From NCBI GenBank assembly GCA_027488515.1, contig JAIYBN010000001.1:811-64810 (forward strand): 64,000 bases of DNA, written 5' to 3'. The DNA comes from Pseudomonadota bacterium. Lineage in GTDB: Bacteria; Bdellovibrionota; UBA1018; CAIMNF01. Position numbers and translations under genes: made by a program. Shown piece after piece: positions 7,049 to 30,574 of this stretch; positions within the stretch are counted from its first letter, which is position 1, and each line of letters opens with the position of its first letter. Below the pieces are notes generated by a model. It did not search any database and was not told the origin of the DNA. It was given only the letters and a program-made list of their open reading frames with translations.

Positions 7049-7112
7049 GACACCAGTGTCTCACGGGTCACTTGCTCCTTGCAATTCCGGCACGAGGCTT
7101 TAGCCTGAAATC

Positions 7113-13189: not shown

Positions 13190-13371
13190 ACTTTACTTTT
13201 CTCATGGATCCCTACACGAATTCAGTTTTCGTCAAAATTCAGACACTTAGATCTGAAATCAATGATTCAAGTTTCATTCAAGCTGTCCCGAAGAAGAGAT
13301 GCACCCGATTGGATTGCGGGTCCAGACAGTAACAGATTAAAATTATTGGGTATAGGTCTGAAGAGGCACGT

Positions 13372-16300
13372 ATGCGCAAAAATAAACTGATTCTTAGACT
13401 GCGGGAGTTTTTGCTCACCCTCGGCTTCATTGCTGGGGTGAGTGCGTGTGAATTTGTTCCCCAGGAAGTGTCGATCACGACGCTCACCGGGGCAGCAGCC
13501 GAAAGAGCGGACAACGCACCCTATGCGGGATTCACCGGGATCACCGAAGCGAATACCCTCAGCGCAAATAAAGTTCAAATCAAGTGGAGCGCATCCACTG
13601 ATGAGAAAGTGATCGCTTACAACATCTATGACTCGAGCAACTTCTTCTTTCCGAAACTCCTGAAAACCGTTCTCGCTCCCGCCAACAGCTTCACCTTGAC
13701 CGGCCTGACGACGGTCACCCTGGGCACTTTCCGGGTGAAGGCCGCCACCGCCAAGAACGTGGAAGATGACAACATGGTCGACAAGTTCGCCATCCCCTAT
13801 GGCGGGATCGCCTCGGCGACCGTGACTTCCTCCACCACAGCCACTGTCAATTTCGCAGACATCAGTAACGCCGATTCTGCCGGGGTCTATTGTAAATGGG
13901 GAACGGCGACGGATTTCACCCTGGTCAAGAGCATCACCAATACCGTGGGTGTGACCTCAGCAGATTTGACCGGCCTTCTTCCCGGATCCACCTATACCTG
14001 CCGGGTCAACACGACCATCGCCGATTTCACGGACAATAACACCCTAACGGTGAGCTTCATTCCGATCGGCCAAGCCACAAGATTGCAATTTGTCACCGAG
14101 CCGGGAAGTGCACCCGCGGGAACCGCCCTCGGACCTCAACCCGTCATTCGAATTCTTGATGACAACGACAATCTGGTTTCTTCCGGGCCCGACTCGACCG
14201 CTCTGATCACCCTGACCCTGTCTGCCTTGAGTCCCTCTGCAGGCACGATCCGTGGGACCGCGACTATCGCTGCAGTCGGTGGCGTGGCCACTTTCAGTGG
14301 AATCAACTTCCAGGAAGCCGGAGTGAAGATTTTGACCGCGACCAAACAAGACACTTCGAATCAGACCGGGGGTGCGCCCAGTTTGACCAAAGATTCGAGC
14401 GAATTCACTATTGTCCCAGCAGCGGTTTCGCCTTTGGCCTCGAAATTGACTCTCACGCCAGCCTCGGTTCCAGGCTCCTATCTCATTGCCAATGGTAACG
14501 CGAGTTACACAGTCGGATTCGAACTTGCTGACCAGTATCAGAACCCGATTTCAGGGGTGAAACCCCAGTTTGCTTCCACCAATTCGAACGACACCTTGAG
14601 CCAGCCCGTTGCCAACACAGATTCGGCCGGCCTGACCTCCGGGTCGATCTCCACGACTGTGGCGGGTACCCGGACTCTCAGCATCAGCTCTCCGTCCGGT
14701 TTGACCGCCGTGACCGCCTCGGCCACCTTTGTGGCCGGCGTGGCAACCAAAGTCGGCTTTGTGCAGCAACCCCTCAACTCTCCGGCAGGGGTGGCGACGA
14801 TGAACTCGGTCCAAGCAGCAGTGCTCGACATCCAAGGGAACGTGGTGATTACCTCCAGTGCGAACATTTCTCTCTCGATCTTCAATAACGTCAGTGGGGC
14901 CAATTTGACTGGAACGACCACGGTCCAAGCGGTGAACGGAGTCGCCACTTTCAACGGTCTCGGGATCGACCGGATCGGAACCTACAAGCTGATCGCAAAC
15001 TCCGCACCACTCACTGTCGCCTACAGTAATAACTTTCAGATCGTATCCGGAGCTCCGGCGAAACTCGCCCTCTCGGGTCCTTCAAGCTTCGTATCAGGTA
15101 ATTGCAGCAACGCTCTGGCTTTCACGCTTCAACTCCAGGACATCGGCAATAACGCCGCAAATGCCACAGCGAGCACCGTGATCCAATTGACCGGTACCGG
15201 TGGCGGAGGATTCTACACCAGCTGTGCGGGAACCACTCCCGTGACGAGCGTCACCTATTCCACCGGCTCGAACACCAAGACCCTGTATTTCAAAAACCAG
15301 AAAGCCGAGAGCTTGGTCCTCACTGCTCGTGACCCGTCGCTGATCATGGCGCAGGGCACTCACAATCTGACGGTGACTCCTTCCCAAGTTTCACTCACCG
15401 GCCCGACTTCCATCATCTCGGGTCGGTGTTCTCCTGCATTCACGATCACCACATTGGGCGCTGACGGGACCACGGGAAACGTCAAAGATGAAACCCCGTT
15501 CCAGATTTCGGGCACCCTGGGAAGCGCCACCTTCTGGGAAGACTCCGCCTGTACCAACTCCCCGGTCACCAATCTCTCCTCCTTCAAAGTGGCAGCAGGT
15601 CAAAGCACCAAGGCTTTCTATGTCAAGGACCCTCTCGCTGAAACCATCTCACTGACCATCTCCGATCCGGCGAATGTGATTTCACCGGCAACCGCTCCTG
15701 TGGTGGTGTTGGTCAACGCCTCACAAATCAATTTTGTCGGACCTACCGTGGTCATCTCGGGTCAACCATCGAGTCCTTATACAGTCACTTTGATGGACTC
15801 GCTTGGGAATCCCGTTCAAGCGCCACAAAACGTGACCCTGAACATCTCAGGATTGACGGGCACACAAGCGGCGTTCTACAGCAATCCGGCTGCCACGACT
15901 TTCCTCGGTTCGGCATTTTCCATTCCGCAAGGCGCTGCCAGCCAAATGATCTACCTGAAGGACATGACTGCAGAGTCCATCAGTGTCAAGGTGGTCGATC
16001 CGGCAGGAAACCTTGCTGATTCCGCAACGATTCAAATCAAAATCTCCCCGTCCGGCATGACACTGGCCGGACCGGTTCCAGCCAATTCCAAAACCAACAT
16101 TTGTGCCGGTCCGTTTACACTGAGAACCATCGATGGTGCGGGTAATGCAGCAGGAGCGGTCACACCGATCACCGCGGGTCTGACGGGTGCCGGATACGCC
16201 GGGAAATTCTTTAATGACAGTGCTTGCTCGAATGAAATCACACAAGTCAATTTCGCAGAAGGCGTGAGCACCCGGACTTTTTACTTCAGAGGACTTTATC

Positions 16301-19251
16301 CGGACAGCTCCTCATTCTTGGCTTCAGATTCCGCCTCTCCCCCCATTTTGACTCCAGCGCAACTGTCTTGGACGGTAAGCGCTTCGCCGGGCTGGATCGG
16401 TTCCGGTCTCGGTCGTGGGGCCGGTGGTACCGCAACCGAAACCGAGGGCTCCCCTATTCTTTGGCAAAGCGGTAAAACACCCGTCGTCGGACGGATCGAT
16501 GCTCCAACCGGCGTGAACGCACTCGCATTCGATCCCTCAAAACGTTATCTTTATGTGGCCGATGCCAACTACCATCGGGTGATCAAATACGATTATCAGA
16601 CCAATCAGTACATTGGTTGGCTCGGCATGCTCACCCGCTGGGGTGGAGTCGGTCCCACCGGAGCCAACACCTTTGCTCTCAGCAGCTCCATGGGATCCAC
16701 CGCAGCAGCCTCACTCGCCAACCAGTGCATCACATTAGCTCATAACTACATCACCCCCGGGTGGTGTCAGGGGGGTATGTCGGTGGCGACCGGCTCCATC
16801 ACTTCAGGAGGCATGCATTCACCAAACGCGGTCGCCAGTGATGGAAATTACGTCTATGTCTCAAACTCGAGCAATTACAACATCACCCGGTTCAATGCCA
16901 ATACCGGCCAGTTTACGGGATGGGTCGGGCGAATTGGGAACAACTCGGGCTTGAGCCCAGGGATTGACACTGAAGGCAACTCCCTGATGAATTGCTCCTC
17001 TTCGAATGCCAACAACTCCCCGACTCCGGGATGGTGTCGATGGGGGGGGCATAGCAATAGCTACATCCAGGTCGGAACCAGCCCTGGCTTGACCTACTCC
17101 ATGACCATCGCTACGGACCAAACCGGTGAAACGTATCTTTACACCGGGAACTACGGCATGGTTTCCAGAATCAACCTGAGCACCGGTGCATTCAGCGGAT
17201 GGATCGGATGGGTACAGCTGACTTCTACAGGAGCCCCGGTTGCTTCAACTTTGGCTTCGGCTCCCGGAGCCACCAACACTTGTGCCACCACTGCGGCCAA
17301 CAACCGGACTCCCGGCTGGTGTATCGGCGGTCAGAACTGGATGAACGGTGGAATCGGTGCCGGTGGTATGGGTGCTATGGGTGGCGTCTGGGCGGATGAA
17401 GCGAACAACATCCTCTATTCCTCGATGGGCAACAATGGCGGGACCATCTACAAACACAATCTCACCACCGGGGCCTATATTGGAAACGTGACCTTCAACA
17501 ACTCTCCGATGGCTTTCAACGGGATCGCCCACATCACCTTTGATGGGACGTACTTCTACATTGCCGACACGAACCGGATCGCCAAGGTAGACACCAACGG
17601 TACACTTTGGGGCTGGATCGGAAAAGTCAACACCACCGCTTCCTTGGCCAATGCATCGGGGAATCCGAGCGGAACCTGCTCGACTGTCGGGGTGAACTCG
17701 AACACCACCGGCTGGTGTATGGGCGGAACCGCCAAATTCGGGATTGATGAAACCTCATTCTTTGGCCTAGGTGCCATCGCCTACGATGGAGCGGACGGAA
17801 TCCTCGTCGGTCAAGGAACCAACTTTCCGGCGATCAAGAAATTCGACAAAACCACCGGGAACTACCAAGGGATGCTGGTCAACGTCGGAGACAGCCCGGC
17901 GACCTGGACCGACTCCCAAGCCATTGCAGGGTTGCACGGGTTCGATGACAACTCCATGTACGCGCCCTCCGGGTTGCACTTCGATGCGGGCTCCAACAAC
18001 CTCTATGCCACCGAGGTCTTGGCTGGTCGCGTAAAACAAATCGATGCCCGTACCGGAGCCACCACAGGGTGGGTGGGTGCCGTCGGCGGATTTGTGAGTG
18101 GAATCACCCGGACGCTCGGTTGCGGAACCAACTCGATCGGGGTCACCTCCGGCTGGTGTTTGGGGGCGATGTTCCATCCCTCATTCTTCACCGCAAACAG
18201 CTGGACTCTGGCTCCGACCAATGCGGGTGGATTCATGTACTACCCCGCCGGGGTCACCAGTGACGGGACCTTTTTATATGTGACCGACATCGGCTACAAC
18301 CGGATCAACCGCTTCCGGCTCAGTGATGGCGCCTACCGTGGCTGGATCGGAGGCATCAGCGGTACGGCCACGACTGGCCCGGCCACAGCATCGGATTCTG
18401 CGTCCTGTACGAATGCCGTGAACCGGTTCACCCCCGGTTGGTGTGTGGGCGGATTGCCTACTTCAGGCAACGGCAACGGATACCTGAACTCACCGAGTGC
18501 CATCACCTTTGCTTCTGGTAATTTGTATGTGATTGACCAGGCCAATCACCGGGTATCTTCCTACAACGCCAATACAGGTGCCTTCAACGGGTGGATCGGC
18601 CGGGTCAACAGTGGGACTGGAATCAGTCCTGCTACGGTTACGAAAAGCGGCTGGGTTCTGACCAATGGCTGGTCGACGGGGGGTAACTCCACCAACGGCA
18701 GTTGCGGAAGCGACCCGGGCGGTGGATTTTGCTTCAACAACGGGCGGGGGGGCATTGCCTCCGATGGCGTGAAGCTTTACGTGGCCAACACCCAGAACAG
18801 TCGTGTCGACATGTTCACTCTGGCCACGGGTGTGTATGAGAAGTCTTCCTATACCCACCCCGGTGTATACACCAACGTTTGGACCACGACTCCAAACTTC
18901 GGGAATAACCTGGGACCCGCCTCCCTTGCTTTCTCGAACGGGCACCTCTATTACACCGTCGTGAACGGAACCACCTTGGTGGGCAAAATGAATGCGACCA
19001 CCGGAACCGTTCTCGGTTGGCGGGGTGGGATCGGGACTTCGCCTGCGGGCCCGGTCTCCAGTCCGGATTGCGTCGGTGCAACCGGTGTGACTCCTGACTG
19101 GTGTCAAGGTGGAGGTGCCGTACAAGGCCTCCTTCTCGGGAACTCGAACAACATCGGTGGTTTTGCGGCCCCTTACGGAATCACAGTGGACAATCACTTT
19201 GTCTACATCAGTGACGAAAACTCTCACAGGATCACCAGGTATCCGAAATGA
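13372..19251 (+). CDS. Giant surface lipoprotein of 1959 aa. It has N-terminal FN3/bacterial Ig-like (Big) domains and a C-terminal beta-propeller built from about 8 NHL-like repeats. Each repeat carries a Cys-x(6-10)-TPGWC-xGG loop.
   Basis: Signal peptide plus lipobox (GVSAC). Ig-like motif (RLQFVTEPGSAPAGTALGPQPVIRILDDNDN). NHL-like repeats (YVADANYHRV, YVIDQANHRV, NGWIG). GAAGAGG RBS. Confidence 0.85.
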   Translation: MRKNKLILRLREFLLTLGFIAGVSACEFVPQEVSITTLTGAAAERADNAPYAGFTGITEANTLSANKVQIKWSASTDEKVIAYNIYDSSNFFFPKLLKTVLAPANSFTLTGLTTVTLGTFRVKAATAKNVEDDNMVDKFAIPYGGIASATVTSSTTATVNFADISNADSAGVYCKWGTATDFTLVKSITNTVGVTSADLTGLLPGSTYTCRVNTTIADFTDNNTLTVSFIPIGQATRLQFVTEPGSAPAGTALGPQPVIRILDDNDNLVSSGPDSTALITLTLSALSPSAGTIRGTATIAAVGGVATFSGINFQEAGVKILTATKQDTSNQTGGAPSLTKDSSEFTIVPAAVSPLASKLTLTPASVPGSYLIANGNASYTVGFELADQYQNPISGVKPQFASTNSNDTLSQPVANTDSAGLTSGSISTTVAGTRTLSISSPSGLTAVTASATFVAGVATKVGFVQQPLNSPAGVATMNSVQAAVLDIQGNVVITSSANISLSIFNNVSGANLTGTTTVQAVNGVATFNGLGIDRIGTYKLIANSAPLTVAYSNNFQIVSGAPAKLALSGPSSFVSGNCSNALAFTLQLQDIGNNAANATASTVIQLTGTGGGGFYTSCAGTTPVTSVTYSTGSNTKTLYFKNQKAESLVLTARDPSLIMAQGTHNLTVTPSQVSLTGPTSIISGRCSPAFTITTLGADGTTGNVKDETPFQISGTLGSATFWEDSACTNSPVTNLSSFKVAAGQSTKAFYVKDPLAETISLTISDPANVISPATAPVVVLVNASQINFVGPTVVISGQPSSPYTVTLMDSLGNPVQAPQNVTLNISGLTGTQAAFYSNPAATTFLGSAFSIPQGAASQMIYLKDMTAESISVKVVDPAGNLADSATIQIKISPSGMTLAGPVPANSKTNICAGPFTLRTIDGAGNAAGAVTPITAGLTGAGYAGKFFNDSACSNEITQVNFAEGVSTRTFYFRGLYPDSSSFLASDSASPPILTPAQLSWTVSASPGWIGSGLGRGAGGTATETEGSPILWQSGKTPVVGRIDAPTGVNALAFDPSKRYLYVADANYHRVIKYDYQTNQYIGWLGMLTRWGGVGPTGANTFALSSSMGSTAAASLANQCITLAHNYITPGWCQGGMSVATGSITSGGMHSPNAVASDGNYVYVSNSSNYNITRFNANTGQFTGWVGRIGNNSGLSPGIDTEGNSLMNCSSSNANNSPTPGWCRWGGHSNSYIQVGTSPGLTYSMTIATDQTGETYLYTGNYGMVSRINLSTGAFSGWIGWVQLTSTGAPVASTLASAPGATNTCATTAANNRTPGWCIGGQNWMNGGIGAGGMGAMGGVWADEANNILYSSMGNNGGTIYKHNLTTGAYIGNVTFNNSPMAFNGIAHITFDGTYFYIADTNRIAKVDTNGTLWGWIGKVNTTASLANASGNPSGTCSTVGVNSNTTGWCMGGTAKFGIDETSFFGLGAIAYDGADGILVGQGTNFPAIKKFDKTTGNYQGMLVNVGDSPATWTDSQAIAGLHGFDDNSMYAPSGLHFDAGSNNLYATEVLAGRVKQIDARTGATTGWVGAVGGFVSGITRTLGCGTNSIGVTSGWCLGAMFHPSFFTANSWTLAPTNAGGFMYYPAGVTSDGTFLYVTDIGYNRINRFRLSDGAYRGWIGGISGTATTGPATASDSASCTNAVNRFTPGWCVGGLPTSGNGNGYLNSPSAITFASGNLYVIDQANHRVSSYNANTGAFNGWIGRVNSGTGISPATVTKSGWVLTNGWSTGGNSTNGSCGSDPGGGFCFNNGRGGIASDGVKLYVANTQNSRVDMFTLATGVYEKSSYTHPGVYTNVWTTTPNFGNNLGPASLAFSNGHLYYTVVNGTTLVGKMNATTGTVLGWRGGIGTSPAGPVSSPDCVGATGVTPDWCQGGGAVQGLLLGNSNNIGGFAAPYGITVDNHFVYISDENSHRITRYPK

Positions 19252-22200
19252 TGTTGAGTGGGGGTAAGCAAATTCTGATTTTGGCCCTGACTCTTCTGGC
19301 AGGGTGCAGATTCGGTGGAAAAGTCACCTACGACGGAACTCCGTACCGTGAGTACAAGGAGACTCCGATCGTGGAACAGCCGACCGTGGTGAGCCCGACG
19401 GGAAACCCGCACTATTCCCGCTCGAGCCTCTTCAGCATCGAGGGGTTTTGCATGGTCGGAGATACCCTCAAACTCGAAGGTGCCGACACTCAAGAAACCG
19501 TATGTCAGCCCGATTCGAGTTATCAGTTCACGATCCTCAAGACATCGGATGGTGTGTACCCCTTCCAGATCACCCAACTGGACCTGAACGGGAACGCTTC
19601 GATTTCCAGTCCTGTCGTATGGATCAGAAAAACCAGTGTGACTGCACCCACCATCACGAGCCCCGCAGTGAATCCATTTTTATCGGCTGGTGCATCACTG
19701 ACTCTTTCGGGGGCATGTGAGACCGGGTCATTCGTTTCACTCGGCGGTGATGGAGCTGGTTCGACCGAGTGCTTGAACTCTGCATACTCATTGAATTTGC
19801 CAAAAGCATCGGATGGTGACTACACCATCCGGGTAGTTGCTGCGGATCCGGCTGGAAATTCAGCCGAAACCTCGATCGAATGGAGGAAACACGCTCTTGA
19901 GGTTTCTCCCGCTTCCGTATCCATCCGGGTGGACACCCCGCAGGCTTTCACCATCACCGGAGGATCCGGATCTTACACCATGGCCCTGAGTGAGAATCTC
20001 TCGGGTGGAACCCTGAATCAGTCGACGCGAACTTATACCACCGGTAGAACGGCATATGTCACCGATAGCTTGACCGTGACCGACTCTCTCGGTGTCAGCC
20101 AATCCATCGGAATCACTACTTTAGCGGGGGACCCGGACCACATTGAAATTGTGAGCGGAGATGATCAGACCGTGCCTGTCGGCACCGTTTTTCCACAACC
20201 GCTGGTGGCCAAGTTGGCTGACCCCTACGGAAACGGCATTCCTTCCTACCCACTGGTGGTGGTTCGGACTTCGGGTGATGCCATCCTTTCAGGAAGCTCC
20301 ATCCGGATCACTGATGCCTCAGGGAACATCACTCTTCCCGCAACCATGGGGTATTCCTCACTTCGAAGCACTTTCCGAGTCTCTCCTCTTTCCGGATCCC
20401 TTCCCGATCTTGCAGGCAGTGGCGGAACCACCGTTTCATTCAAAGCTCGATCCTCCACATTGGGAACATCGTTATTTGGATCCGCATTCATGGCGGGGAA
20501 CACTCCCGTCTCAATGGTGGTGGCCAAGTTTGTCGACAGTGGTTTCGGTGACATCGCTGTTCTGAACCAAGCCGAAAACACAGTTGGAATTCTCATCGGG
20601 CGCGGGAACGGCCTTTTCGGAAAAATGAAAACCTACGGGCTGGGAGCCTGTTCCGGAGGAGTGAAAGCCGTATCAGGCGACTTGAACGAGGACGGACATG
20701 TCGATTTGGCGGTGGTCTGTAACGGATCCGGTCAGATTTCTCGTTTGCTCGGAAACGGCGATGGCACCTTTGCCATCGCTCAAGTGATGAACACGGTGGC
20801 AGTACCCTCTGGCTTGGTGCTGGCGGACTTGAACGGAGATTCCCATCTTGACCTCGCCACTGCATCGATGCAAGACAATGTGGCAGCAGTTCACTATGGC
20901 ACGGGAACCGGTGCGTTCGGATCGGCCCAAGAGTTCACAGTGGGGACCACCCCGGTGGCTCTGACCGTCATCGACTGGAATGAAGATGGCTTGAAAGACT
21001 TGGCTTTGGCTCACTCGGCAACCGGGAATGTCGGAGTTTTGTTCCGCAAAGCGGATGGAAGGTATGGAGACTTCACTGAAGGGTACTCCGGATCAGGACT
21101 GAACTCCATCACGACAGCCGATGCGGACGCCGACGGTCATCCTGACCTGATCACCACCAATTCCGTCGACACCAATCTGATCATCTTTTACGGTGACGGT
21201 CTTGGAAATCTCACCACGACCAGCAGCTTGACCACCGGCCTGTCTCCGAGCTCGGTGGTTGTGACCGATCTTGATCGTGACGGCAGAAAAGACCTGGTGG
21301 TGTCGAATACTGACGATATGAACCTCGGGACTTTCTATGGGGTGGGCACACGCCAGTTCAGTTTGCCTAAACTCGATTCGGTCAACGGGAGTCCGGTTTC
21401 TCTGGTGGTCTACGACTCAAACAGCGACACCGTCCCCGACATCTCTTTTGTGGATGTGGCAAACTCCACCGTCCGGGTACTTTCAGGCAACCCTCTGGGA
21501 CAGCTTGATTTTGTCAATCCAGTGGGGAATTCTCCCGCCCATCTGACATCCGGTGATTTTGATTCGGACGGATTTCGTGACGTGGTGGTGGTCAACCAAG
21601 GGTCCAATTCGCTCACCGTCTTCAAGGGCCTGGGGAACGGACATTTGACACTGAAATCGACGATCTCCACCGGCACCCAGCCAGTTTGGGTCGAAAGTGA
21701 GGATTTGAACCGCGACGGAAAATTGGACCTGGTCGTAGTGAACAAAGGGGGGAATTCGGCGGGGGTATTCATCGGAAAGGGCGACCTGACCTTCGAAATC
21801 ATGGTTCCCTACGGTACCGGTGACAATCCGTCCGGGGTGACCGTCGGAGATTTCAACCGGGATGGTCATTTGGATCTGGCCACCTCCAACCAGACCACAT
21901 CGAAGATCAGCCTCCTGACGGGAAATGGTGACGGGACCTTCAATCTCAAAGTCGACTCACTGACCGGCAGCGCTCCTGCGGGAATCGTTTCTGCAGACTT
22001 CAACGGAGACGGACTTCCGGATCTGGCCACCGTGAATTACTCTGACAGCTCGGTGAGTATCTTGATGGCGAACCCGGATGCAAGCTTTCGTGCTCCCGTC
22101 AATTATGCGACGGGTGGACTCCCGACGGGAATGGTCAGTGGATACTTCAACAGTGATCTATTGGTAGACTTGGCTGTGACGAACTTCGGAGACGGGACGA

Positions 22201-22520
22201 TCAGTGTCTTACACGGGGTTTCGGACGGATCGTTCTCAGCTCAAGTGGTTTACTCCGTGGATGCCAGCCCTGGAATTTTATTCGCCGGGGATTGGAACGG
22301 CAAAGGCCGGACCGACCTCATGGTTGCTCTCAACACCCAGAACGCTTTCGCATTCCTTCCCAGTATGGCCGGAGGGCAGTTCAATAACAGCTCGGAAATC
22401 TTCAACCAGGCTGGAGCGATTTCTGCGGTTTCGGGAACCGATCTCAATGGAGACGGGAAACTGGACGTTCTGGTGATCGATGGAACCAACAGCCTCTTGC
22501 AGGTGAGGCTCGGCCACTGA
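19248..22520 (+). CDS. Giant lipoprotein of 1090 aa, with N-terminal Ig-like domains and a C-terminal FG-GAP/VCBS (integrin-alpha-like) beta-propeller repeat array.
   Basis: The ATGA start/stop overlap with the upstream gene indicates translational coupling. Lipobox LAGC. More than 10 repeats of FG...DLNGDGHLDLA type. Confidence 0.85.
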   Translation: MMLSGGKQILILALTLLAGCRFGGKVTYDGTPYREYKETPIVEQPTVVSPTGNPHYSRSSLFSIEGFCMVGDTLKLEGADTQETVCQPDSSYQFTILKTSDGVYPFQITQLDLNGNASISSPVVWIRKTSVTAPTITSPAVNPFLSAGASLTLSGACETGSFVSLGGDGAGSTECLNSAYSLNLPKASDGDYTIRVVAADPAGNSAETSIEWRKHALEVSPASVSIRVDTPQAFTITGGSGSYTMALSENLSGGTLNQSTRTYTTGRTAYVTDSLTVTDSLGVSQSIGITTLAGDPDHIEIVSGDDQTVPVGTVFPQPLVAKLADPYGNGIPSYPLVVVRTSGDAILSGSSIRITDASGNITLPATMGYSSLRSTFRVSPLSGSLPDLAGSGGTTVSFKARSSTLGTSLFGSAFMAGNTPVSMVVAKFVDSGFGDIAVLNQAENTVGILIGRGNGLFGKMKTYGLGACSGGVKAVSGDLNEDGHVDLAVVCNGSGQISRLLGNGDGTFAIAQVMNTVAVPSGLVLADLNGDSHLDLATASMQDNVAAVHYGTGTGAFGSAQEFTVGTTPVALTVIDWNEDGLKDLALAHSATGNVGVLFRKADGRYGDFTEGYSGSGLNSITTADADADGHPDLITTNSVDTNLIIFYGDGLGNLTTTSSLTTGLSPSSVVVTDLDRDGRKDLVVSNTDDMNLGTFYGVGTRQFSLPKLDSVNGSPVSLVVYDSNSDTVPDISFVDVANSTVRVLSGNPLGQLDFVNPVGNSPAHLTSGDFDSDGFRDVVVVNQGSNSLTVFKGLGNGHLTLKSTISTGTQPVWVESEDLNRDGKLDLVVVNKGGNSAGVFIGKGDLTFEIMVPYGTGDNPSGVTVGDFNRDGHLDLATSNQTTSKISLLTGNGDGTFNLKVDSLTGSAPAGIVSADFNGDGLPDLATVNYSDSSVSILMANPDASFRAPVNYATGGLPTGMVSGYFNSDLLVDLAVTNFGDGTISVLHGVSDGSFSAQVVYSVDASPGILFAGDWNGKGRTDLMVALNTQNAFAFLPSMAGGQFNNSSEIFNQAGAISAVSGTDLNGDGKLDVLVIDGTNSLLQVRLGH

Positions 22521-22619
22521 GTCCATCCGGACACTGTCAATTTTGCCACAGTCCAGACCCCCCTCTTTTTTGCTAAACTAAAAGTGAAGGCAAGTCGTTA
22601 AGAACCTTAGAGGTTTCGG

Positions 22620-25600
22620 ATGTTTTGGGCGACTGTTTCAACAGGTTGGGGGGGATGCCTGAGAGTGGTTTTACCGCTCTTGTTGGTGGCTCTTTCTGCA
22701 TGTTCGATCGATGTCCCACTCAATGATGTCCGGGTCAAAGGGATCACTTTCACTTCACTCGAGGAATTGTCCTACAACTCCAGCCAAGCCTCGATCCGGA
22801 TCCGGGGAAACAATTACTTCCCTGACTCAAATCCCCTGACCACGATTCGCTTTCATTCGGATTCGATCTGCAGTTCAAGTCCCCTCGGAGAAGGCCCCGT
22901 CCGGACCTTCATCGATCCGGGAATCACAGCAGAAGTGTCGAGTACGCAAAAGACCGAGATTTGGGCATCGAACCATACGAATGACAAATGTGTTTACGTC
23001 ACCACCTATGACCCCCTTCATACGGCTCCTCCGGCGCCGCTCTTTCTCTCCTTTGATCCGGCTCCGCCTTCGACAGTGGTCTCTGCTCCGAGAATCTTCG
23101 GTGAGGTATCCGGCAATACCGTGAGTGTCAGCCTTTACGATGATTCGACCTGTGGTCACCTCATCGCTACTGGAAGCTCAGATGAGTTCACCACGGTCGG
23201 GATCGGACTGACTCTTGGTCCCGATCGTGAAACTGAAGTTTATGGAAGGTCCTTCGAACCGTTTGGAAACGGTTCAGCATGCGTGTTTCTGGGAGCGTAT
23301 TCACACGACTCTTCTGCCATCGGCGGGCCTGAACTCACCAGCGTACTCCCGGTTTCCCCCAATCGGACATCCACAACACCTCGCCTGTCCGGTAATCTTC
23401 CTGATGGCGGAACCCAAATCAAATTCTATTCTGATGCGGGATGCAAGGTCGAGATCAACTCCGGCACTTCGGAGGAGTTTTCGACTGCAGGGATCCTCCT
23501 CACGGTCGCTGAGAACCAGAAGCTCGGCGTATGGGCAAAAAATCTGGACGGGGACGGCCACTCCTCTTTTTGCACCTACTTGACCACCTACCAACACGAC
23601 AACCTCCCGCCGACTGCACCGGTGTTCACTTCCACCATTCCCGTTTCTCCGAGCGGTACGACCCTCTACCCCAAAGTGATAGGATCGATTGCCGCGGATG
23701 CGACTCAAGTCAGATTCTATAATAATCGGGCGTGTACTGTCGGAATCGGCTCAGGTACCCGCGCTGCCTACATCTCCACCGGGATTCCGGTCAGCGTGAC
23801 CGAGAACGACACCACGGTAATTTACGGTGCTTCGGTCGATGCTGCGGGCAATGCATCGAATTGCGTGGAATTGGCCTTCTTCGTTTCCGATACCATTCCT
23901 CCGGACCCACCGGTTTACGCCGGGACCGATCCGACTTCACCGACAAATAAAAGCTTCACTCCCAAAATCGAAGGGGGCGTTTCGGCTGATACCGAGACTG
24001 TCTCCCTCTTTTCAGACATATCCTGCCAGAGCCAAATCGGAACCGGACCTGCAACAGACTTCATTGCGGCGGGAATTCAGGTCACGGCAGGGAACAACGT
24101 TCCAACAACGATCTATGCGAAGTCCTACGACTTGGTTGGAAATGGAACCGAGTGCACCTACCTGACCACCTATGATCACTCCACCGCCATCCCACCTGCT
24201 CCCGTGTACCAGACCGCAAATCCGGTCACTCCGACCAATGTGACCAACAAGCCCTTTTTGATTGGCTCTCTTTCTCCGATCATCACGCAGGTACAACTGT
24301 TTGCCGATGCTGCTTGCACGACCATGATCGGAGCAGGAACCGCGAAAAACTTCAAATCGACCGGGATCGGAATCACCGTGGCGATGAATGCCGTGACTCC
24401 GGTTTATTCAAAAGCTCTCGACAAATACGGAAATGAATCGGAGTGTACGTTCTTCGTCAATTACACTCATACGAACATCATCCCTTCGCCACCGGTCTTC
24501 CAGTCCTACTCCCCTACCCCTCCTACGCGAATCAGCTCCACTCCAATGATCAAAGGCACGGCTCCCACCAATCCGGTCGCGATCATTCCGAGTTCCCGTC
24601 TGGTGTTTTACGACAGCCAATTCTGTGTGAACCGGATCGGTCTCGGGAGCGTTGCCGACTTTCAAGGAGGCGGAATCCAGGTCAATGCTGGGGTGAATGC
24701 GATCACTAACATCCATGCTCGGGCCTTCGATGACGCCGGAAACGGCAGTCCCTGCACCAACATGTCCCCCTACACCCATGACATCCTCTTGCCGGGTCGC
24801 CCGATTTTCCTGTCCTCTTCTCCCGGAAGCCCGTCTTACAACCGGCAAGCATTGGTCAGGGGTTACCTGGGTCCGACAAGTGACTTCCTGTCTGCTTCAA
24901 CGGTCACCCTGTTTTCGGATGAGGCTTGTACCCAGCAAATCGGCCACGGTCCAGTCGGTCTGTTCACGACCACAGGAGTCGAGGCTACCATGCTTTTCAA
25001 CACCACCACCATGGTTTACGGGTTCACGACGAACATTGTCGGGTCTGACTCCATTTGTTCGTACTTGACCAACTTCCTACACGCCCCCGAGGGTGGGAGT
25101 GAGCTGATGGCAAGTGCACTCATGAACGGCTCGGTGATTCTGTCCTGGCTTCCTGACTTCGTGGCCAATCCCGCACCGGATTATCATGTGAAGCGGTCGA
25201 CTCGCCCTGGCGGACCTTATTCCACGATCCAGATCACCAAATCTGCCAACTTCAAAGATGTCTACACCACGAATGGTGAAACTTACTACTACATCATTGA
25301 ATCGATCAACTCGACCGGAAAGAGCGTGTACTCCAACGAGGCAAACGCCCAAGCGCTCACTTCAAGACCGATCGCACCCACCTCAATCAGCGCCACTCCC
25401 GGCTCAGGGAAGGTATCCCTCGATTGGCAAGCGGACATCAAGGATTTGACCTATACCGTCCTGCGATCCTTCACATCTGGGGGTCCTTACCAAGTGCTCG
25501 CATCCCAGTTGAACACCACTTCTTACGTGGATGACACCGCTCCCAATGATCAGGCGGTCTACTACGTTGTCAAGGCAGTCAATCCGGCGGGTGTCAGTCC

Positions 25601-28600
25601 GGCATCCCCCGAAGCTTCGGCCATGGCCAAGGACCAGCCACCCGCTCCGACACGCCTGACTGCAGCTTGGGCGATCGGTGCATGCGGATACGGAACGACC
25701 GGTGTGATGTTGACCTGGAGTGCCCCGGCGTACCAGAGCGGATTCTTTGTGAACTTTGCTACCACCAGTGGCGCGACACAGAGGATTGCGCGGGTCACTG
25801 GTACCTCCTACCTTTCATGTATGCCGACTTGGGGTGGGAATGTCGATCCGAACTACCCCTTACCCCCTGACTATGAAGAATACTATACGGTAGCGGCAGA
25901 CTGGGGAGGTTACCCGGGAGCCCAATCGAACGAAGTGGTCCTGAACCATGTCATGCCCACCTTGAGCCTCACACCCGGAAATAATGAAATCGTAGTAGAC
26001 TGGACACCGGCCGGGAACGCACCTTCTTACATTCTCAGACGTGCTCTTTCGCCGAATGGACCGTGGACCGTCATTGGCAATATTTCGGGGAGCTACTACC
26101 TCGACTCCTCTGTCACCAACGGAACGGCTTACTACTACACGGTGGAGCCGGTATACGTTGCGGGAACCCAGTACGGGATCATTTCCACATATGCATCAGC
26201 CATCCCCGGTCCGAATCCGGGTGCTCCCACCAATCCAAAGCTGATCATTGCTAACAATCGCGCCTATTTGCGCTGGACCGCACCCACTCATTATGCAGGG
26301 TTCAATGTCTATTCAGCATCGGCACCGGGTGGCCCTTGGACCTTGCGGTACACTTCTCCAATCAACGAATGGCAAGACCTGGTCCCGCAATTCGGCATGA
26401 ATTACTATCGGGTCACAACACGTTGGGGCGAAAGCTATGAATCGGCCCCGACGGCGACTCTTTCATTCCGAAACGGGGTGACCACCACGATCAATGCGAC
26501 TGCCAATGCCACAGCTGTCACAGTGACTTGGAACTCCGTGATCGGGGCATCGAAGTACATTTTGAAGCGAAGCACCACTTCGAGAGGGCCGTACACGGTC
26601 ATCTCGAGCAATGCGGCCAGCCCCTATACAGACTTGGCCGTCATCGCAGACACCGCCTACTACTACGTGGTGGCCGCCGAGTTTGCTGACACTACCCAAG
26701 GACAAGATTCAGCCGAAACCAGTGCCATGCCTGGAAACGGTAAAGTCCCTACAGGCTTGACGGTCACCTCGGTCGGCTCGAACACCGTGAACTTGACTTG
26801 GGGTCGGGTCACCGGGGCGAGTGGCTATCGGGTTTACTGGGGTCTGACCAATAACGGACCCTATGACCAAATCCCACTCATGAGTTCGGTCAACTCGATC
26901 TCTATTCCGAGCTTGAATGCGGACACAACCTACTACTTCAAGGTCACTTCATTTTCTCCGGGAGAGTCGACTCGATCCGCACAAATTGCCGCAACCACCC
27001 GGAACACACCATCCGCTCCCTTGGTGGTAGCCGGAAACAACTCAGTGAAGGTGGACTGGGGCGGAGTGAGCGGGGTATCGGGTTACAATGTTCAGCGATC
27101 CACCGACGGGACTACTTTCACCACGATCGCATCGAACCTCTCGACCTTTACTTTGACTGATACAGGACTCACGAACGGACAGATTTATTTTTACCGGATT
27201 ATCGCGGTATTCTCGAACGGTTCCCAGACCTCTCCCACCAGCACATCAGTGACTCCGGGCGTGGTCCCGCGGGTCCCGGCTGGATTGGCAGTCGTCGGGA
27301 ACTCGAACGGTACCGAAATCACGCTCACGTGGGCGCCGGTCCCGGGAGCAACCAGTTATGGAATCTACACCTACCAAGGAGGCACCTACACCTCCTACGG
27401 GTCCAGCACCAACAACTCCGAGCAGCTCTTCGGGCAGGTGGAAGGGACTCCCATTTCATTTGCAGTGACCGCACTCAACGGGACGAACGAGTCCGGCTAT
27501 TCTTCCGTGGTGACAGTGGTCCCCTCGAACTCGGGCACTGCTCCAACGGCGATCATGTCTGGTAGTGCTGTACAAATCACCTGGTCGAGTGATCCGTACG
27601 CATCCGCATACACCCTGGAGCGTTCCGAAGATTCCATCAACTTCCAAGCGATCGCTACAGGGATCGCCACACTGTCCCATACTGACAGCGCAGTCATTTC
27701 GGGCCAGGCATATTTTTACCGCTACAGACCGGAATATACGGGAGGGCACATCGGAGCACCCTCGGCGACGAGCGCCCCTGTGACCCCGGGCAATTCCCTG
27801 CTGACTCCGGCAAACCTCGTGGCGAAAGCCAGCGATGTGGCCCAGGTCTCGCTACAATGGGTTCAATCTCCCAATGCTGTATCCTACAGCGTTTACCGGA
27901 GTGGCACAGCTGGCGGGCCCTATGTATTCAAGGCATCAGTGACAGCGCCGGATACATTCTATGTGGACAACACCGTCATCCCTGGATCGGCGTACTATTA
28001 TGTGGTCACTTCTGTGAATGATTCCGGGGTCAATTCTCCGTACTCCAATGAATCTGGAGTCGACTTCACAGTGAGTGTTCCTTCAGGCCTGGCAGCCAAT
28101 CCGGCCAATGGGACCACCCAGTTGAGTTGGAATCCCGCCGGAGGGGCCAACCAGTATTATCTATACCGCTCTCTTGAAGAGACCGGATCTTATTCACTGA
28201 TCTATTCAGGGGCATCCACCAGCTTCATTGATCCGGACATCACTCATGGAGTCGACTACTACTACAAGGTGGCGGCTAGGTTCTCAGGCGCGGGCACTTC
28301 TCATACCTCGGCAGCCGTCATGGCGACCGGGATCGCGACCTTGGACCTCGTAGTGCCGATCGAACTCACCGATCAACCCTTGGCGTCGGACGTGAATGAA
28401 GTGACTTTCGAGAGTACTCAAACCAGCTTCGACCCGGACGACTATGACGGAAGCAGAACCTATTCTCTTGAAACAGTGGCCATGAATCTGGACTCGACCG
28501 ATCGGAGTCTCAAGTGGGTGGATTCGAACGGAAGTGAAGTGGGTGAAGTGGTCATCACTGCCGGCACGACCGCTCCTACCCTGTTCCGGAACACCATCAC

Positions 28601-29528
28601 GATCCCGTCGGGTCTGACAGCATATCGACTCAGGTCCCAGGGAACTACTGAGCCTGCACAGCTTCAAGTGATGAGTGCACGGCTGATGGTGAAGCAAGTC
28701 GGAGCGACGCGGACGAAGCTGTACTTCCCACTCCTTTCCAAGTCTTCAACCCCGTCCTCATCTGATTCCTTGAATCCATTGCATGGCACCATGAGTACGG
28801 ACTACTCGACTCTTCCTTCAGCACAACGATTTACCAGACACCTTTCCGCTCAATCCACCCTTGGAGAGTTCAACAGCTGGGAGCTGGAAGCAGTTGTTTC
28901 TGCCCAACAAGACGCTATCGGCAGCTTTGCTCTCAGAAATTTGAGCCAGAATGCATTGGTCGAAGACTCCCAGACCTACTTCAAATCCGACACCGTCACG
29001 CTCTCGAGAGTGCCGATCTCGGACGGACTCGAAAACTTCTCCACTGCCAATGAGGACAATCAGTATGACCTTGTTGTCCGATGCGACCGTAATTGCACGA
29101 ACTCGGTACAGATCTTCAAAGCAGGCCTGTGGCTGAAGGTGCTCAACCTTTCCCAGGTAGAGGTCGTTCAACGACTCACCCTAGGCGCGTCCTATCCTGA
29201 AGGGGCTCCGGTCTTGACTGATTCGCGTGCAGTGGTTGACCTGAGTGGATATTCGAATCCATCTTTCGGACTGAATGTAACCGCCTCCACTCCGATGATG
29301 ACGATCTTGGATGTTTTGTTGTCCTCCTCGGGCACTTCGAACTCATCCACGAGCGGCCTGAACCCGGTCCCAGGATCGACTCTTTCGTTCGGATTACCGG
29401 ACATGACGACACAGGCTACGCCGATGAATTTGAGCCTCACGAACGGAGATCGCCTCGTGGTGGAAGTGAGTGGGCAGGCGGGGGCTGTGGTGCGGGAGGC
29501 GGGGCTGGTGATTCGTGCACACCGCTAA
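22620..29528 (+). CDS. Giant lipoprotein of 2302 aa. It contains about 8 tandem ~100-aa two-Cys Ig-like repeats, then about 11 fibronectin type III domains, then a ~400-aa C-terminal domain.
   Basis: Lipobox LSAC. Recurring C.YLTTY.HD..(L/I)PP.PV(F/Y) repeat boundaries. FN3 signatures (YYYVV, GVS.YS, W..V.GA..Y). Confidence 0.85.
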   Translation: MFWATVSTGWGGCLRVVLPLLLVALSACSIDVPLNDVRVKGITFTSLEELSYNSSQASIRIRGNNYFPDSNPLTTIRFHSDSICSSSPLGEGPVRTFIDPGITAEVSSTQKTEIWASNHTNDKCVYVTTYDPLHTAPPAPLFLSFDPAPPSTVVSAPRIFGEVSGNTVSVSLYDDSTCGHLIATGSSDEFTTVGIGLTLGPDRETEVYGRSFEPFGNGSACVFLGAYSHDSSAIGGPELTSVLPVSPNRTSTTPRLSGNLPDGGTQIKFYSDAGCKVEINSGTSEEFSTAGILLTVAENQKLGVWAKNLDGDGHSSFCTYLTTYQHDNLPPTAPVFTSTIPVSPSGTTLYPKVIGSIAADATQVRFYNNRACTVGIGSGTRAAYISTGIPVSVTENDTTVIYGASVDAAGNASNCVELAFFVSDTIPPDPPVYAGTDPTSPTNKSFTPKIEGGVSADTETVSLFSDISCQSQIGTGPATDFIAAGIQVTAGNNVPTTIYAKSYDLVGNGTECTYLTTYDHSTAIPPAPVYQTANPVTPTNVTNKPFLIGSLSPIITQVQLFADAACTTMIGAGTAKNFKSTGIGITVAMNAVTPVYSKALDKYGNESECTFFVNYTHTNIIPSPPVFQSYSPTPPTRISSTPMIKGTAPTNPVAIIPSSRLVFYDSQFCVNRIGLGSVADFQGGGIQVNAGVNAITNIHARAFDDAGNGSPCTNMSPYTHDILLPGRPIFLSSSPGSPSYNRQALVRGYLGPTSDFLSASTVTLFSDEACTQQIGHGPVGLFTTTGVEATMLFNTTTMVYGFTTNIVGSDSICSYLTNFLHAPEGGSELMASALMNGSVILSWLPDFVANPAPDYHVKRSTRPGGPYSTIQITKSANFKDVYTTNGETYYYIIESINSTGKSVYSNEANAQALTSRPIAPTSISATPGSGKVSLDWQADIKDLTYTVLRSFTSGGPYQVLASQLNTTSYVDDTAPNDQAVYYVVKAVNPAGVSPASPEASAMAKDQPPAPTRLTAAWAIGACGYGTTGVMLTWSAPAYQSGFFVNFATTSGATQRIARVTGTSYLSCMPTWGGNVDPNYPLPPDYEEYYTVAADWGGYPGAQSNEVVLNHVMPTLSLTPGNNEIVVDWTPAGNAPSYILRRALSPNGPWTVIGNISGSYYLDSSVTNGTAYYYTVEPVYVAGTQYGIISTYASAIPGPNPGAPTNPKLIIANNRAYLRWTAPTHYAGFNVYSASAPGGPWTLRYTSPINEWQDLVPQFGMNYYRVTTRWGESYESAPTATLSFRNGVTTTINATANATAVTVTWNSVIGASKYILKRSTTSRGPYTVISSNAASPYTDLAVIADTAYYYVVAAEFADTTQGQDSAETSAMPGNGKVPTGLTVTSVGSNTVNLTWGRVTGASGYRVYWGLTNNGPYDQIPLMSSVNSISIPSLNADTTYYFKVTSFSPGESTRSAQIAATTRNTPSAPLVVAGNNSVKVDWGGVSGVSGYNVQRSTDGTTFTTIASNLSTFTLTDTGLTNGQIYFYRIIAVFSNGSQTSPTSTSVTPGVVPRVPAGLAVVGNSNGTEITLTWAPVPGATSYGIYTYQGGTYTSYGSSTNNSEQLFGQVEGTPISFAVTALNGTNESGYSSVVTVVPSNSGTAPTAIMSGSAVQITWSSDPYASAYTLERSEDSINFQAIATGIATLSHTDSAVISGQAYFYRYRPEYTGGHIGAPSATSAPVTPGNSLLTPANLVAKASDVAQVSLQWVQSPNAVSYSVYRSGTAGGPYVFKASVTAPDTFYVDNTVIPGSAYYYVVTSVNDSGVNSPYSNESGVDFTVSVPSGLAANPANGTTQLSWNPAGGANQYYLYRSLEETGSYSLIYSGASTSFIDPDITHGVDYYYKVAARFSGAGTSHTSAAVMATGIATLDLVVPIELTDQPLASDVNEVTFESTQTSFDPDDYDGSRTYSLETVAMNLDSTDRSLKWVDSNGSEVGEVVITAGTTAPTLFRNTITIPSGLTAYRLRSQGTTEPAQLQVMSARLMVKQVGATRTKLYFPLLSKSSTPSSSDSLNPLHGTMSTDYSTLPSAQRFTRHLSAQSTLGEFNSWELEAVVSAQQDAIGSFALRNLSQNALVEDSQTYFKSDTVTLSRVPISDGLENFSTANEDNQYDLVVRCDRNCTNSVQIFKAGLWLKVLNLSQVEVVQRLTLGASYPEGAPVLTDSRAVVDLSGYSNPSFGLNVTASTPMMTILDVLLSSSGTSNSSTSGLNPVPGSTLSFGLPDMTTQATPMNLSLTNGDRLVVEVSGQAGAVVREAGLVIRAHR
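22990..25210 (+). repeat. Intragenic tandem repeat array: about 8 repeats of ~300 bp, each encoding a ~100-aa two-Cys domain.
   Basis: Periodic recurrence of (S/T)xC(T/V)(Y/F)L(T/G)(T/A)Y.H and PP(A/S/D)P(V/L)(F/Y) motifs in the translation. Confidence 0.7.
25210..28300 (+). repeat. Intragenic tandem array of about 11 FN3-encoding units, each ~270-300 bp.
   Basis: Recurring YYY(V/K)V, GxSxxS and LxWxxV motifs at roughly 90-100 aa spacing. Confidence 0.65.
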
Positions 29529-29530: not shown

Positions 29531-30574
29531 CCCCTAACTGTCCCCTTTGACTTCACCTGAAATACTGTCAAGATCGGATCAATACCGTATTGTGGTAGCG
29601 CAGGTAAATATACAGGTGATCTATCAGTCCCTCAGGCTTCTTGGTCGTGCACCAGGTGCGTCGAAAAAGCCGATTGAGATTCGCTCTCAGCATCGCGCAG
29701 GTATGGTTGAGCGCAAAAAGCGGATCAAAGACGAGTTTCTTCAACTCTCCCTGCCCCGTGATTGCACCCCGAGCACCCGGGTGAGCGATGTGATCCACAT
29801 TCTTCAGGTGTCTTTTGATGAACCTCGGGTAATGTGGATTCTGATCAGACTCAAGAATTGATCCGGAATGCACCACGGGTTTCAGTGTCCTGAACAGGAG
29901 ATCCCAGCCATTCGGGCGCTCGTCTTTGCGGTACCCGTACTTACGTCTTGAAATCTCGGCAAGCTTTCCCCTGGCAGGCATCCGCGAAACCTGAAAGCCC
30001 AGTATTTCTCGGGTGTTTTTGCTTACAGCTAAAGATACGCTCAAGGGTTTGCACTTGGTGTGTTCAAAGGTCTCTAAGTCATCAAACTGGATCTCTGAGA
30101 TTGGGGTACCTGCGAGTTCAATCAGTCTACTTTCATGCTCAGCCTTCGCTCGTGCTGCTACCATTCGAAATTTTCGTACAATCGTCTTTGGATTGACCCG
30201 AAGGAGAATCGCCATCCGTCGCTGACTCACTCCGGATGAGAACAGTTGCGCGACCACATGATTGAGGTCGCGCTTTTTCTGTCGATAGTCGGGGGAATGG
30301 GTACTTGCCGAGAAGTGGCGCCCACAATTTTTACAATGATACTTTGTGATGAACCGCCGGTCACGTGTCCGGTAGAAGGAGCCTTTCCGGACGATGAGTC
30401 TTGATCCAGGACTCGACTTTCCACCTGGATTTAGGAGGGAGGGCTGACGATCGCAATTGGGGTTCGGACAGCGTCTTTTCATGACCCAAGCAAAGGCAAG
30501 TCAAAGGCCAATGAGCGCAGGGTCTTGGAATCTTCAGCTGGACCGGAAAGGGAAGCATAAGGGGGCAGTTGGGG
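29531..30574 (-). mobile_element. Insertion sequence of about 1.04 kb (IS1595-family-like or IS1-like) with imperfect terminal inverted repeats.
   Basis: The left end 29531..29547 (cccctaactgtcccctt) and the right end 30559..30574 (reverse complement ccccaactgccccctt) match at 15 of 17 positions with 1 gap. A single transposase ORF lies inside. Confidence 0.7.
29568..30482 (-). CDS. IS transposase with an N-terminal zinc ribbon and a DDE domain, IS1595-like or IS1-like.
   Basis: N-terminal C2C2 motif (CPNPNC...CKNCGRHF), followed by an acidic-residue-containing catalytic region (FDDLETFEH..., ILESDQNPHY). 304 aa. Confidence 0.75.
   Translation of the reverse strand: MKRRCPNPNCDRQPSLLNPGGKSSPGSRLIVRKGSFYRTRDRRFITKYHCKNCGRHFSASTHSPDYRQKKRDLNHVVAQLFSSGVSQRRMAILLRVNPKTIVRKFRMVAARAKAEHESRLIELAGTPISEIQFDDLETFEHTKCKPLSVSLAVSKNTREILGFQVSRMPARGKLAEISRRKYGYRKDERPNGWDLLFRTLKPVVHSGSILESDQNPHYPRFIKRHLKNVDHIAHPGARGAITGQGELKKLVFDPLFALNHTCAMLRANLNRLFRRTWCTTKKPEGLIDHLYIYLRYHNTVLIRS

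Follow-up and report, generated by a model that had tools for sequence, protein, structure and literature searches.

Ion-driven 5:2 motors power T9SS (type IX) secretion, TonB transport and Tol-Pal (PMC9389320, PMC12505986), and in the gliding Bacteroidota giant surface adhesins are moved along the cell by an ion-driven motor (PMC8986121, PMC9870892). The locus described here belongs to an uncultured member of the Bdellovibrionota, a relative of the predatory Bdellovibrio, and lies in a window of 64,000 nucleotides (assembly GCA_027488515.1, contig JAIYBN010000001.1, positions 811 to 64,810), in which three consecutive giant genes, called here g1, g2 and g3, follow each other on the forward strand. 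An earlier note on this DNA had read this trio as an operon for a possible surface or prey attachment assembly. Its lipoprotein-type, adhesin-like modules and its conservation stand, but the trio does not stand alone: a conserved cluster, of which it makes up the largest part, also encodes a MotA/MotB stator, a rotor-like protein (J603) and envelope proteins of the K, E, I and L families. Seen in this context, the trio is most likely to be read as the output module of an envelope machine linked to a motor, and no longer as a passive surface assembly. In working principle, the cluster is closest to Agl-Glt/CglB and GldLM/SprB, and it is a member of neither. Its novelty would lie in an ion-motor-linked envelope and adhesin machinery of known principle, built here from different parts.

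The three genes are lipoprotein-type open reading frames (ORFs) without internal stops: g1 (13372..19251) encodes 1959 amino acids (aa), g2 (19248..22520) 1090 aa and g3 (22620..29528) 2302 aa. The stop of g1 overlaps the start of g2 in an ATGA and 99 nucleotides (nt) separate g2 from g3, exactly as first annotated from the sequence. Even on the most conservative reading these would be, to our knowledge, unusually large lipoproteins for a diderm bacterium. Pfam detects fn3, Big_1 and NHL in g1, 12 FG-GAP_3 stretches together with Big_13 in g2, and fn3 in g3, in agreement with the Ig-like, FN3, NHL-like and FG-GAP modules proposed earlier; the counts were refined with iterative hidden Markov models (HMMs) built on five orthologs. 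In g1, two FN3 domains (about aa 55-213) and seven Ig-like domains of Big_1 type (aa 214-988) precede at least ten NHL-like propeller blades (aa ~1000-1959) carrying Cys-loop inserts of the ‘TPGWC..GG’ type. The Ig-like region of g2 spans ~380 aa (aa ~40-420, Big_13/Big_1-like) and is followed by 13-14 FG-GAP blades (aa 430-1074), which can be read as two seven-bladed propellers. The longest stalk is that of g3, with eight Cys-containing Ig-like domains (aa 43-821) and 12 FN3 domains (aa 833-1887), ahead of a family-specific, all-beta C-terminal region of ~415 aa (aa ~1888-2302).

The common plan of the three proteins thus reads, from their predicted domains, as a lipid anchor, an Ig/FN3 stalk (nine domains in g1, about four in g2 and 20 in g3) and a distal head. 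Tandem Ig-like/FN3 stalks, by which fibrillar adhesins are recognized, are found in all of them. The heads read as two NHL propellers in g1, two FG-GAP propellers in g2 and, tentatively, a jelly-roll in g3, since the confident part of the AlphaFold2 (AF2) model of the g3 C-terminal region resembles those of CBM6/36 type. Only four fragment homologs of that region were found, so that the model is poor, with a mean pLDDT (the predicted score of the local distance difference test) of 57, and the CBM-like assignment is therefore tentative. PDB sequence searches with the g3 C-terminus and with the propeller half of g1 gave nothing useful.

The lipoprotein signals were evaluated with a rule in the style of PROSITE PS51257, which asks for a positive N-region, a hydrophobic core and [LVI][ASTVI][GAS]C within ~15-40 residues of the start, and which was applied with all in-frame starts to orthologs from 11 loci. 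g1 (VSAC, Cys26) and g2 (LAGC, Cys20) pass the strict rule. g3 (LSAC, Cys28) passes a relaxed one only, as no Lys or Arg occurs within its first seven residues, R15 preceding the hydrophobic core. The rule was passed by 27 of the 31 orthologous N-termini, against 3 of the 62 other window ORFs of at least 200 aa that served as background; among the failures, one is due to the length limit alone and one carries Asn at -2. This difference indicates that the lipobox of the trio is a conserved feature and not a chance occurrence, and g1-g3 are predicted lipoproteins, in line with the signal peptides and the VSAC, LAGC and LSAC lipoboxes first noticed by eye. In all g2 orthologs with a complete N-terminus (or nearly all, by another count), the lipobox Cys is followed by a conserved [RKH]-x-G-G (g2 residues 20-25, window 19305..19322). 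The corresponding sequence is often C-L-G-G-G in g3 orthologs and C-x-P-x-[DE] in g1 orthologs. Such post-Cys motifs, for example C-[RKH]-x-G-G, may serve lipoprotein sorting or docking. The many conserved Cys residues of the three proteins suggest in addition an extracytoplasmic location.

At least 11 metagenome loci of Bdellovibrionota carry the trio in the same order, with lengths that vary by about ±2% and with the same number of domains, at an identity of only 36-45%. Ortholog lengths range over 1927-1997 aa for g1, 1089-1119 aa for g2 and 2286-2312 aa for g3, and domain numbers are identical across this divergence (eight Ig and 12 FN3 in g3, seven Ig in g1). About 25 full-length relatives of g2 were found at 35-41% identity, besides close ones at 82-84%, none of them with a name. 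Fixed length and domain number at such divergence fit a machine part better than a freely evolving adhesin. Membrane-proximal stalks are better conserved than distal heads, a pattern that would follow from docking of the base on conserved machinery and contact of the heads with variable ligands. All named records with the trio are metagenome-assembled genomes (MAGs) of Bdellovibrionota (Oligoflexia, Pseudobdellovibrionaceae, Bdellovibrionaceae, Bacteriovoracaceae), and no cultured strain was matched in a scan of reference genomes with a six-sequence alignment. Neither the trio in the literature searched nor any annotation of it in the databases searched could be found, in keeping with its earlier description as not a named system. 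The earlier note had listed three findings that would count against it. A lack of lipoprotein signals is contradicted by the conserved lipoboxes, a lack of the three-gene arrangement in relatives by its recurrence in every sufficiently long orthologous locus but one, and pseudogenisation by stop-free ORFs of conserved length, on which grounds we also rejected the pseudogene reading ourselves. A defence or phage element was considered too and rejected, as nothing points to either. In the exceptional locus, L012 (CAIKYX010000209, Oligoflexia bin-3925, 260..8386), g1-g2 are followed, at the position of g3, by a HEAT-repeat gene like that at window 6020..7048 and then directly by I, J and K; in this lineage g3 is either encoded elsewhere or absent.

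Among the partners of the trio, J603 (31185..32996, reverse strand) is a FliF/FliG-like single-pass membrane protein. It comprises a signal peptide, a periplasmic alpha/beta domain of ~140 aa resembling FliF RBM3 (aa ~40-176), one transmembrane (TM) helix (aa ~197-220) and a helical cytoplasmic domain of ~340 aa (aa ~250-590) resembling the FliG middle and C-terminal (MC) domains. In J603 orthologs Pfam recognizes FliG_M in four of six and FliG_C in two of six, and the family profile matches the FliG structure 1lkv across the middle and C-terminal domains (E=1.4e-4). The AF2 model has a mean pLDDT of 65, reaching about 90 in the C-domain, and Foldseek ranks FliG first with it (4fhr_B, E=6e-4), then FliF and PrgK. 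A torque-receiving domain of FliG type (middle plus C-terminal, ARM-like) is thus present in J603. A PDB sequence search with J603 alone gave nothing useful, and the FliG/FliF similarity is seen only by profiles and structure comparison. In low-identity alignments, the acidic pair of the torque helix (FliG D288, D289) and an MFxF-like motif are conserved in the J603 orthologs examined. On these profile and model grounds J603 looks like a natural minimal FliF(RBM3)-TM-FliG(MC) fusion. An exhaustive HMMER search collected 256 representatives of the family, nearly all full length (580-700 aa), without retrieving canonical FliGs, and the family thus appears, by sequence, to be a separate and rare one. 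The literature searched describes no natural membrane-anchored FliG-like protein, only engineered FliF-FliG fusions.

In distant loci, the J gene overlaps or abuts motB or motA, in the order MotA-MotB-J in L055 and J-MotA-MotB in L056. As these loci combine J-MotAB with other large proteins, J and MotAB form the invariant core, the giant proteins being a variable, lineage-specific module. In L055 (1..10417) three proteins accompany the core, one of 387 aa, one of 410 aa with a vWA-like DxSxS motif and one of 1579 aa. In L056 (7321..17321) an 858-aa protein, whose N-terminus resembles g1 residues 11-214, precedes J-MotA-MotB, a K-like TPR lipoprotein and a 200-aa protein.

The stator genes of the window encode a divergent flagellar-type A subunit (MotA/PomA-like, 7113..7913, forward strand) and a B subunit (7910..8650, forward strand) with the MotB plug and an OmpA-type peptidoglycan-binding domain. 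They match the PomA/MotA/MotP and MotB/MotD/MotS models end to end, and their best PDB matches are flagellar stators. With scores of ~134 bits they stay well short of the equivalog cut-offs (237-394 bits for MotA models, 259-312 bits for flagellar MotB-type models), consistent with a specialised stator paralog. R90 is conserved in all four cluster-linked MotAs (low-identity alignments).

In the window, all cluster members are found between 7113 and 35140. Elsewhere the D, E and F genes, K-J-I, MotA-MotB and the gene of the GYF protein (L462 in the window) occur within ~10 kb of the trio in at least four arrangements. Thus L002, L003 and L007 display E-D-g1-g2-g3 followed by a convergent I-J-K; one contig carries g2-g3-K-J-I-MotA-MotB, all on one strand; in L054 a LysM-D-K-J-I-MotA-MotB-GYF block adjoins g3; and in L053 MotAB, GYF and K-J-I are convergent with g3-g2. 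The flanking genes are unrelated housekeeping genes which differ between loci, and local GC content varies from 37% to 64%. Because arrangements, flanks and GC differ in this way, the cluster is held together through rearrangement and does not merely reflect inherited gene order.

The other members of the cluster are mostly envelope proteins. K213 (32993..33634, reverse strand), the first gene product of the K-J-I operon, is a lipoprotein (LGC) with a C-terminal TPR domain. I212 (30575..31213, reverse strand) is a small outer-membrane (OM) beta-barrel of about eight strands ending in YFQF, and Pfam OMP_b-brl is detected in four of seven orthologs. E394 (11022..12206, reverse strand), a lipoprotein (VAAC) with two LysM peptidoglycan-binding domains, recurs with the trio. 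D368 (9932..11038, reverse strand) adjoins the trio in six loci and has a signal peptide and a beta-rich C-terminal part, a putative OM barrel; no family match was found for it. F328 (12203..13189, reverse strand), which also recurs with the trio, is a coiled-coil protein lacking a signal peptide, with the Pro-rich C-terminus PPPPPVGEI. L462 (33752..35140, forward strand) has a GYF_2 domain at its N-terminus, then a Pro-rich linker and a single TM helix that lead to a periplasmic coiled-coil part, and its orthologs follow MotAB in L054 and L053. GYF domains bind proline motifs, and the Pro-rich tail of F328 may form an interaction pair with the cytoplasmic GYF domain of L462. The tail (PPLPP in L013) is not conserved in all F328 orthologs. 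Two further genes stand apart. C416 (8651..9901, reverse strand), an all-coiled-coil protein of 416 aa encoded between motB and D368, turned up elsewhere only in L005, the closest relative, and looks like an addition specific to the lineage. The IS1-like transposase (29568..30482, reverse strand; NCBIfam transpos_IS1, E=1.5e-10) between g3 and the I-J-K operon occurs only in this lineage, its 3' end being present also in L005; elsewhere I-J-K directly abuts g3. It is a lineage-specific insertion and not part of the system.

Several of these features echo the Agl-Glt machinery. Both include an inner-membrane ion-driven motor of the MotA/TolQ superfamily and are found among predatory or gliding bacteria of one broad lineage (PMC11761067, PMC3169522, PMC11135422). 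Both also include a single-pass membrane protein with a GYF domain (GltJ there, L462 here), a TPR connector (GltC and K213) and OM barrels for a lipoprotein adhesin (GltABH-GltK-CglB there; I212, possibly D368, and g1-g3 as candidates here). They differ in the stator, which is here of flagellar type, with plug and OmpA domain, and in Agl-Glt the TolQ/R-like AglRQS (classification PMC12505986). The proposed stator partner is here FliF/FliG-like, whereas Agl-Glt contains no such protein, and the ‘adhesins’ are here three proteins of 120-250 kDa made of Ig, FN3 and propeller modules. With Pfam and NCBIfam profiles, and no direct comparison to Glt sequences, the window cluster gave no match to GltD, GltE, GltG, TonB-C, FHA, vWA (CglB) or Glt-named NCBIfam families. 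A copy of Agl-Glt was rejected on account of the motor, which is not of TolQ/TolR type (GIT clade), the stator matching flagellar models over its full length.

The likeness to T9SS/SprB gliding lies in an ion motor which acts, via lipoprotein-containing periplasmic parts, on giant repetitive adhesins (PMC8986121, PMC9870892). The phylum is different, the giant proteins are predicted to be N-terminally lipidated here and are anchored by a C-terminal domain (CTD) there, and the proposed motor partner is FliG-like here, the known one GldM there. Neither g1-g3 nor their neighbours gave a match to the T9SS CTD (Por_Secre_tail) or to Gld families in Pfam and NCBIfam; the sole T9SS-labelled match is a 27-bit FG-GAP overlap against a cut-off of 600 bits. 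We rejected a T9SS cargo, as the giant proteins have no CTD. Compared with the flagellar core, J603 is short (~600 aa) and unites its parts in one protein, which has one RBM-like domain but lacks the FliG N-domain; canonical FliG is not retrievable from it by sequence, and the Arg of the torque helix is not conserved. No export-gate, rod, hook, FliM/FliN or filament gene was found in the cluster, in the rest of the 64-kb window or in the ~20-kb orthologous loci, and a flagellum as such was rejected for lack of export, rod, hook and switch genes.

Fibrillar adhesins and Ig-repeat lipoproteins, such as the Big_1 arrays of invasin/intimin type, share with the trio the succession of anchor, Ig-like/FN3 stalk and distal (in the trio putative) binding domain, and Big_1 and Big_13 are indeed matched in the trio. 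Leptospira LigA and LigB are likewise large Ig-repeat proteins with lipoprotein anchoring. The trio differs from these in repeat numbers that are invariant across deep divergence, in the fixed operon of three different proteins, in double beta-propeller heads and in its genomic tie to motor genes.

Taken together, these comparisons lead us to propose, tentatively and with slightly less than even credence, that uncultured Bdellovibrionota possess a non-flagellar machine driven by a stator, with the trio as its envelope-distal adhesin module. In this model g1-g3 would be the ligand-contacting part of a conserved multi-gene machine. Its energising core would be the flagellar-type MotA/MotB stator acting on an assembly of J603, in which a periplasmic FliF-like ring-building domain would be joined to a cytoplasmic FliG-like torque-receiving domain. 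K213 (TPR), E394 (LysM), I212 (barrel), D368 (putative barrel) and L462 (GYF) could provide the periplasm-spanning connectors, through which the J603 assembly, set in motion by ion flow, would shift the giant lipoproteins, put them under tension or expose them. The output could be surface translocation, powered adhesion, or contact with prey or a substrate. The proposed coupling would resemble in principle AglRQS-Glt-CglB or GldLM-SprB. From cluster content and predicted domains we infer an OM or surface location of the trio, its physical link with the motor, the formation of a ring and the role that the machine plays.

The argument can be pushed further, to a non-flagellar machine in which a FliF(RBM)-TM-FliG(MC) rotor and a dedicated MotAB would transmit force to three lipid-anchored fibres and which would constitute a third motor-driven adhesin system; this we find rather unlikely, though worth stating. 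That such a third system was built independently, after Agl-Glt and GldLM/SprB, seems to us just as doubtful. It is also conceivable that a rotor-stator module of pre-flagellar or post-flagellar origin has a living relative in this cluster.

A number of observations weigh against the stator-driven machine. In the stator-rotor interface, again judged from low-identity alignments, the position of MotA E98 is not acidic (N, Q or T), an acidic residue being found at 94 instead, and the torque-helix Arg residues of FliG are not conserved in J603, the equivalent of R281 being absent. We considered whether these changes amount to a charge co-variation of MotA with J603, R90/D288-D289 being kept and E98/R281 lost; the conserved acidic residue at MotA 94 weakens this case, and the co-variation is weakly suggestive at best. 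The structural models of J603 and of the g3 C-terminal region have the low mean pLDDT given above (65 and 57). The cluster is moreover not uniform: in L001 the trio appears without K-J-I within the 3 kb seen downstream, L012 has g1-g2 with K-J-I and no g3 there, and L055 and L056 have J-MotAB without the trio, so that the core does not depend on it. Inheritance can account for part of the clustering within one phylum, a shared promoter for the cluster was sought in the window and none was found, and all data come from MAGs and metagenomes. Surface exposure is not the default for Lol-type lipoproteins, and the known surface-export devices (Slam, T9SS, T5SS, the type V systems) are not present. 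Finally, MotAB could be one of the flagellar stators of the organism; Bdellovibrio-type bacteria carry several.

Some of these observations are just what would be expected if the trio were a set of stand-alone fibrillar adhesins or a surface coat, passively binding prey, substrate or neighbour cells, its proximity to MotAB and J603 reflecting shared regulation or inherited order. An Ig/FN3 stalk with a propeller or lectin-like head is typical of adhesins, the heads diverge faster than the stalks, J-MotAB is found without the trio in L055 and L056, and in the available sequence of L001 the trio is found without K-J-I. In free adhesins, repeat arrays usually vary, whereas here neither the number of repeats nor the total length changes over deep divergence; the same partner genes, moreover, accompany the trio through at least four rearrangements and different flanks, up to the contiguous, single-stranded order g2-g3-K-J-I-MotA-MotB of one contig. 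We therefore regard passive adhesins as an unlikely, if serious, alternative.

The flagellar character of the stator, with its plug and peptidoglycan-binding domain, and of the J603 folds raises another question, namely whether the giants are accessory or scaffold parts of a (sheathed) flagellar motor. MotAB would then be a true flagellar stator, the giants would be periplasm-facing structural elements, as Lol-sorted lipoproteins face the periplasm by default, and J603, together with the TPR, LysM and barrel proteins, would make up scaffolds in the periplasm or inner membrane, comparable to the disks and cages known from the motors of Vibrio and Campylobacter (FlgP, FlgT, PflA/B). TPR proteins and lipoproteins are typical parts of motor scaffolds in other lineages, and the cluster encodes both. 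Yet no flagellar structural, export or chemotaxis gene occurs in the cluster, the 64-kb window or the ~20-kb loci, nor any match to the FlgP, FlgT, PflA or MotX/Y families. Instead of scaffolding the stator, a second FliG-like protein anchored in the membrane would compete for it with FliG, and a stalk of 20 domains, which at typical domain size would measure ~70-80 nm, is longer than the periplasm is wide. These points make the scaffold improbable. Quite improbable, in our view, is a stator-energised system for export, insertion or OM maintenance (or a Tol-Pal-like function) in which the trio would be the cargo. In its favour, giant lipoproteins must reach the surface by some dedicated route, the trio is adjoined by a conserved OM barrel (I212), by D368 as a putative one and by a TPR lipoprotein, and the 5:2 motors cited above do power T9SS secretion, TonB transport and Tol-Pal (PMC9389320, PMC12505986). 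The cluster nevertheless contains no translocon-like large barrel, secretin or ATPase, I212 being a small barrel of about eight strands, and folds like those of FliG and FliF suggest that torque is received and a ring formed, and do not suggest an extended transducer of TonB or TolA type.

If the coupling of the trio to a J603-MotAB motor is real, the flagellar MotA-FliG interface would be used outside the flagellum, tied to OM or surface fibres instead of a rod and filament. This would bear on the evolution of flagellar torque generation from simpler ion-driven envelope motors, as well as on surface and prey contact by Bdellovibrio-like predators without full Myxococcus-type Glt sets. Three conserved families of fixed geometry, g1, g2 and g3, labelled ‘hypothetical’ so far, are defined here, and so are the FliF/FliG-like family of 256 members and a possible lipoprotein sorting motif, C-[RKH]-x-G-G, so far likewise ‘hypothetical’. 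The architecture of the trio would be unusually rigid even under the most conservative reading.

Concerning expression, an AT-richer leader of 182 nt (13190..13371, forward strand), noticed earlier upstream of g1, has indeed a GC content of 0.40 against 0.56 for the whole window. A GAGG ribosome-binding site lies just 5' of the g1 ATG and another GAGG precedes g3. In a scan of 12900-30700, the 16-kb trio region contained 7 promoter-like sites (sigma70-like) against 8.8 in shuffles and 10 terminator-like sites against 17.1. As neither is commoner than in shuffled sequences, the arrangement of g1-g2-g3 fits one transcript, and the three genes are very probably co-transcribed. Consensus sigma70, sigma54 and sigma28 promoters were searched in the leader and none was found, and no common sigma54 or sigma28 promoter precedes g1 across nine loci; sigma54 matches across the window number 30 against 23 expected, with none in cluster promoters.

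The heptamer TGAGACA, rare overall (30 matches in 363 kb), is clustered 75-220 nt 5' of g1 in four genomes and occurs also 5' of the LysM-led operon in two further ones; both observations are post hoc and uncorrected. Its positions are 3955 and 4052 in L002, 4068 in L003, 3913 in L004, 3864 and 3989 in L008, 7082, 7177 and 7207 in L054, and 21845 and 21914 in L013. In the window it is found at 7057 (reverse strand), in the region divergent from motA, where it precedes the ATG of the HEAT-repeat gene by 9 nt, and the g1 leader has only CAGACA variants, at 13239 and 13322. TGAGACA may be the site of a common regulator.

Two minor observations concern the rest of the window. An Rfam scan of its whole length returned no family at threshold, and the sole tRNA called, by ARAGORN, is a 95-nt tRNA-Ala(TGC) at 54802..54896 (reverse strand), wholly within the Lon protease ORF 52579..55059 (forward strand); with no Rfam tRNA there, the call is probably a false positive. 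A sigma54-dependent response regulator (receiver and AAA+ domains, no helix-turn-helix detected) and a histidine kinase are encoded at 45940..49063 (reverse strand), and a similar response regulator/kinase pair is found ~4 kb from the cluster in the ERZ1426828 contig.

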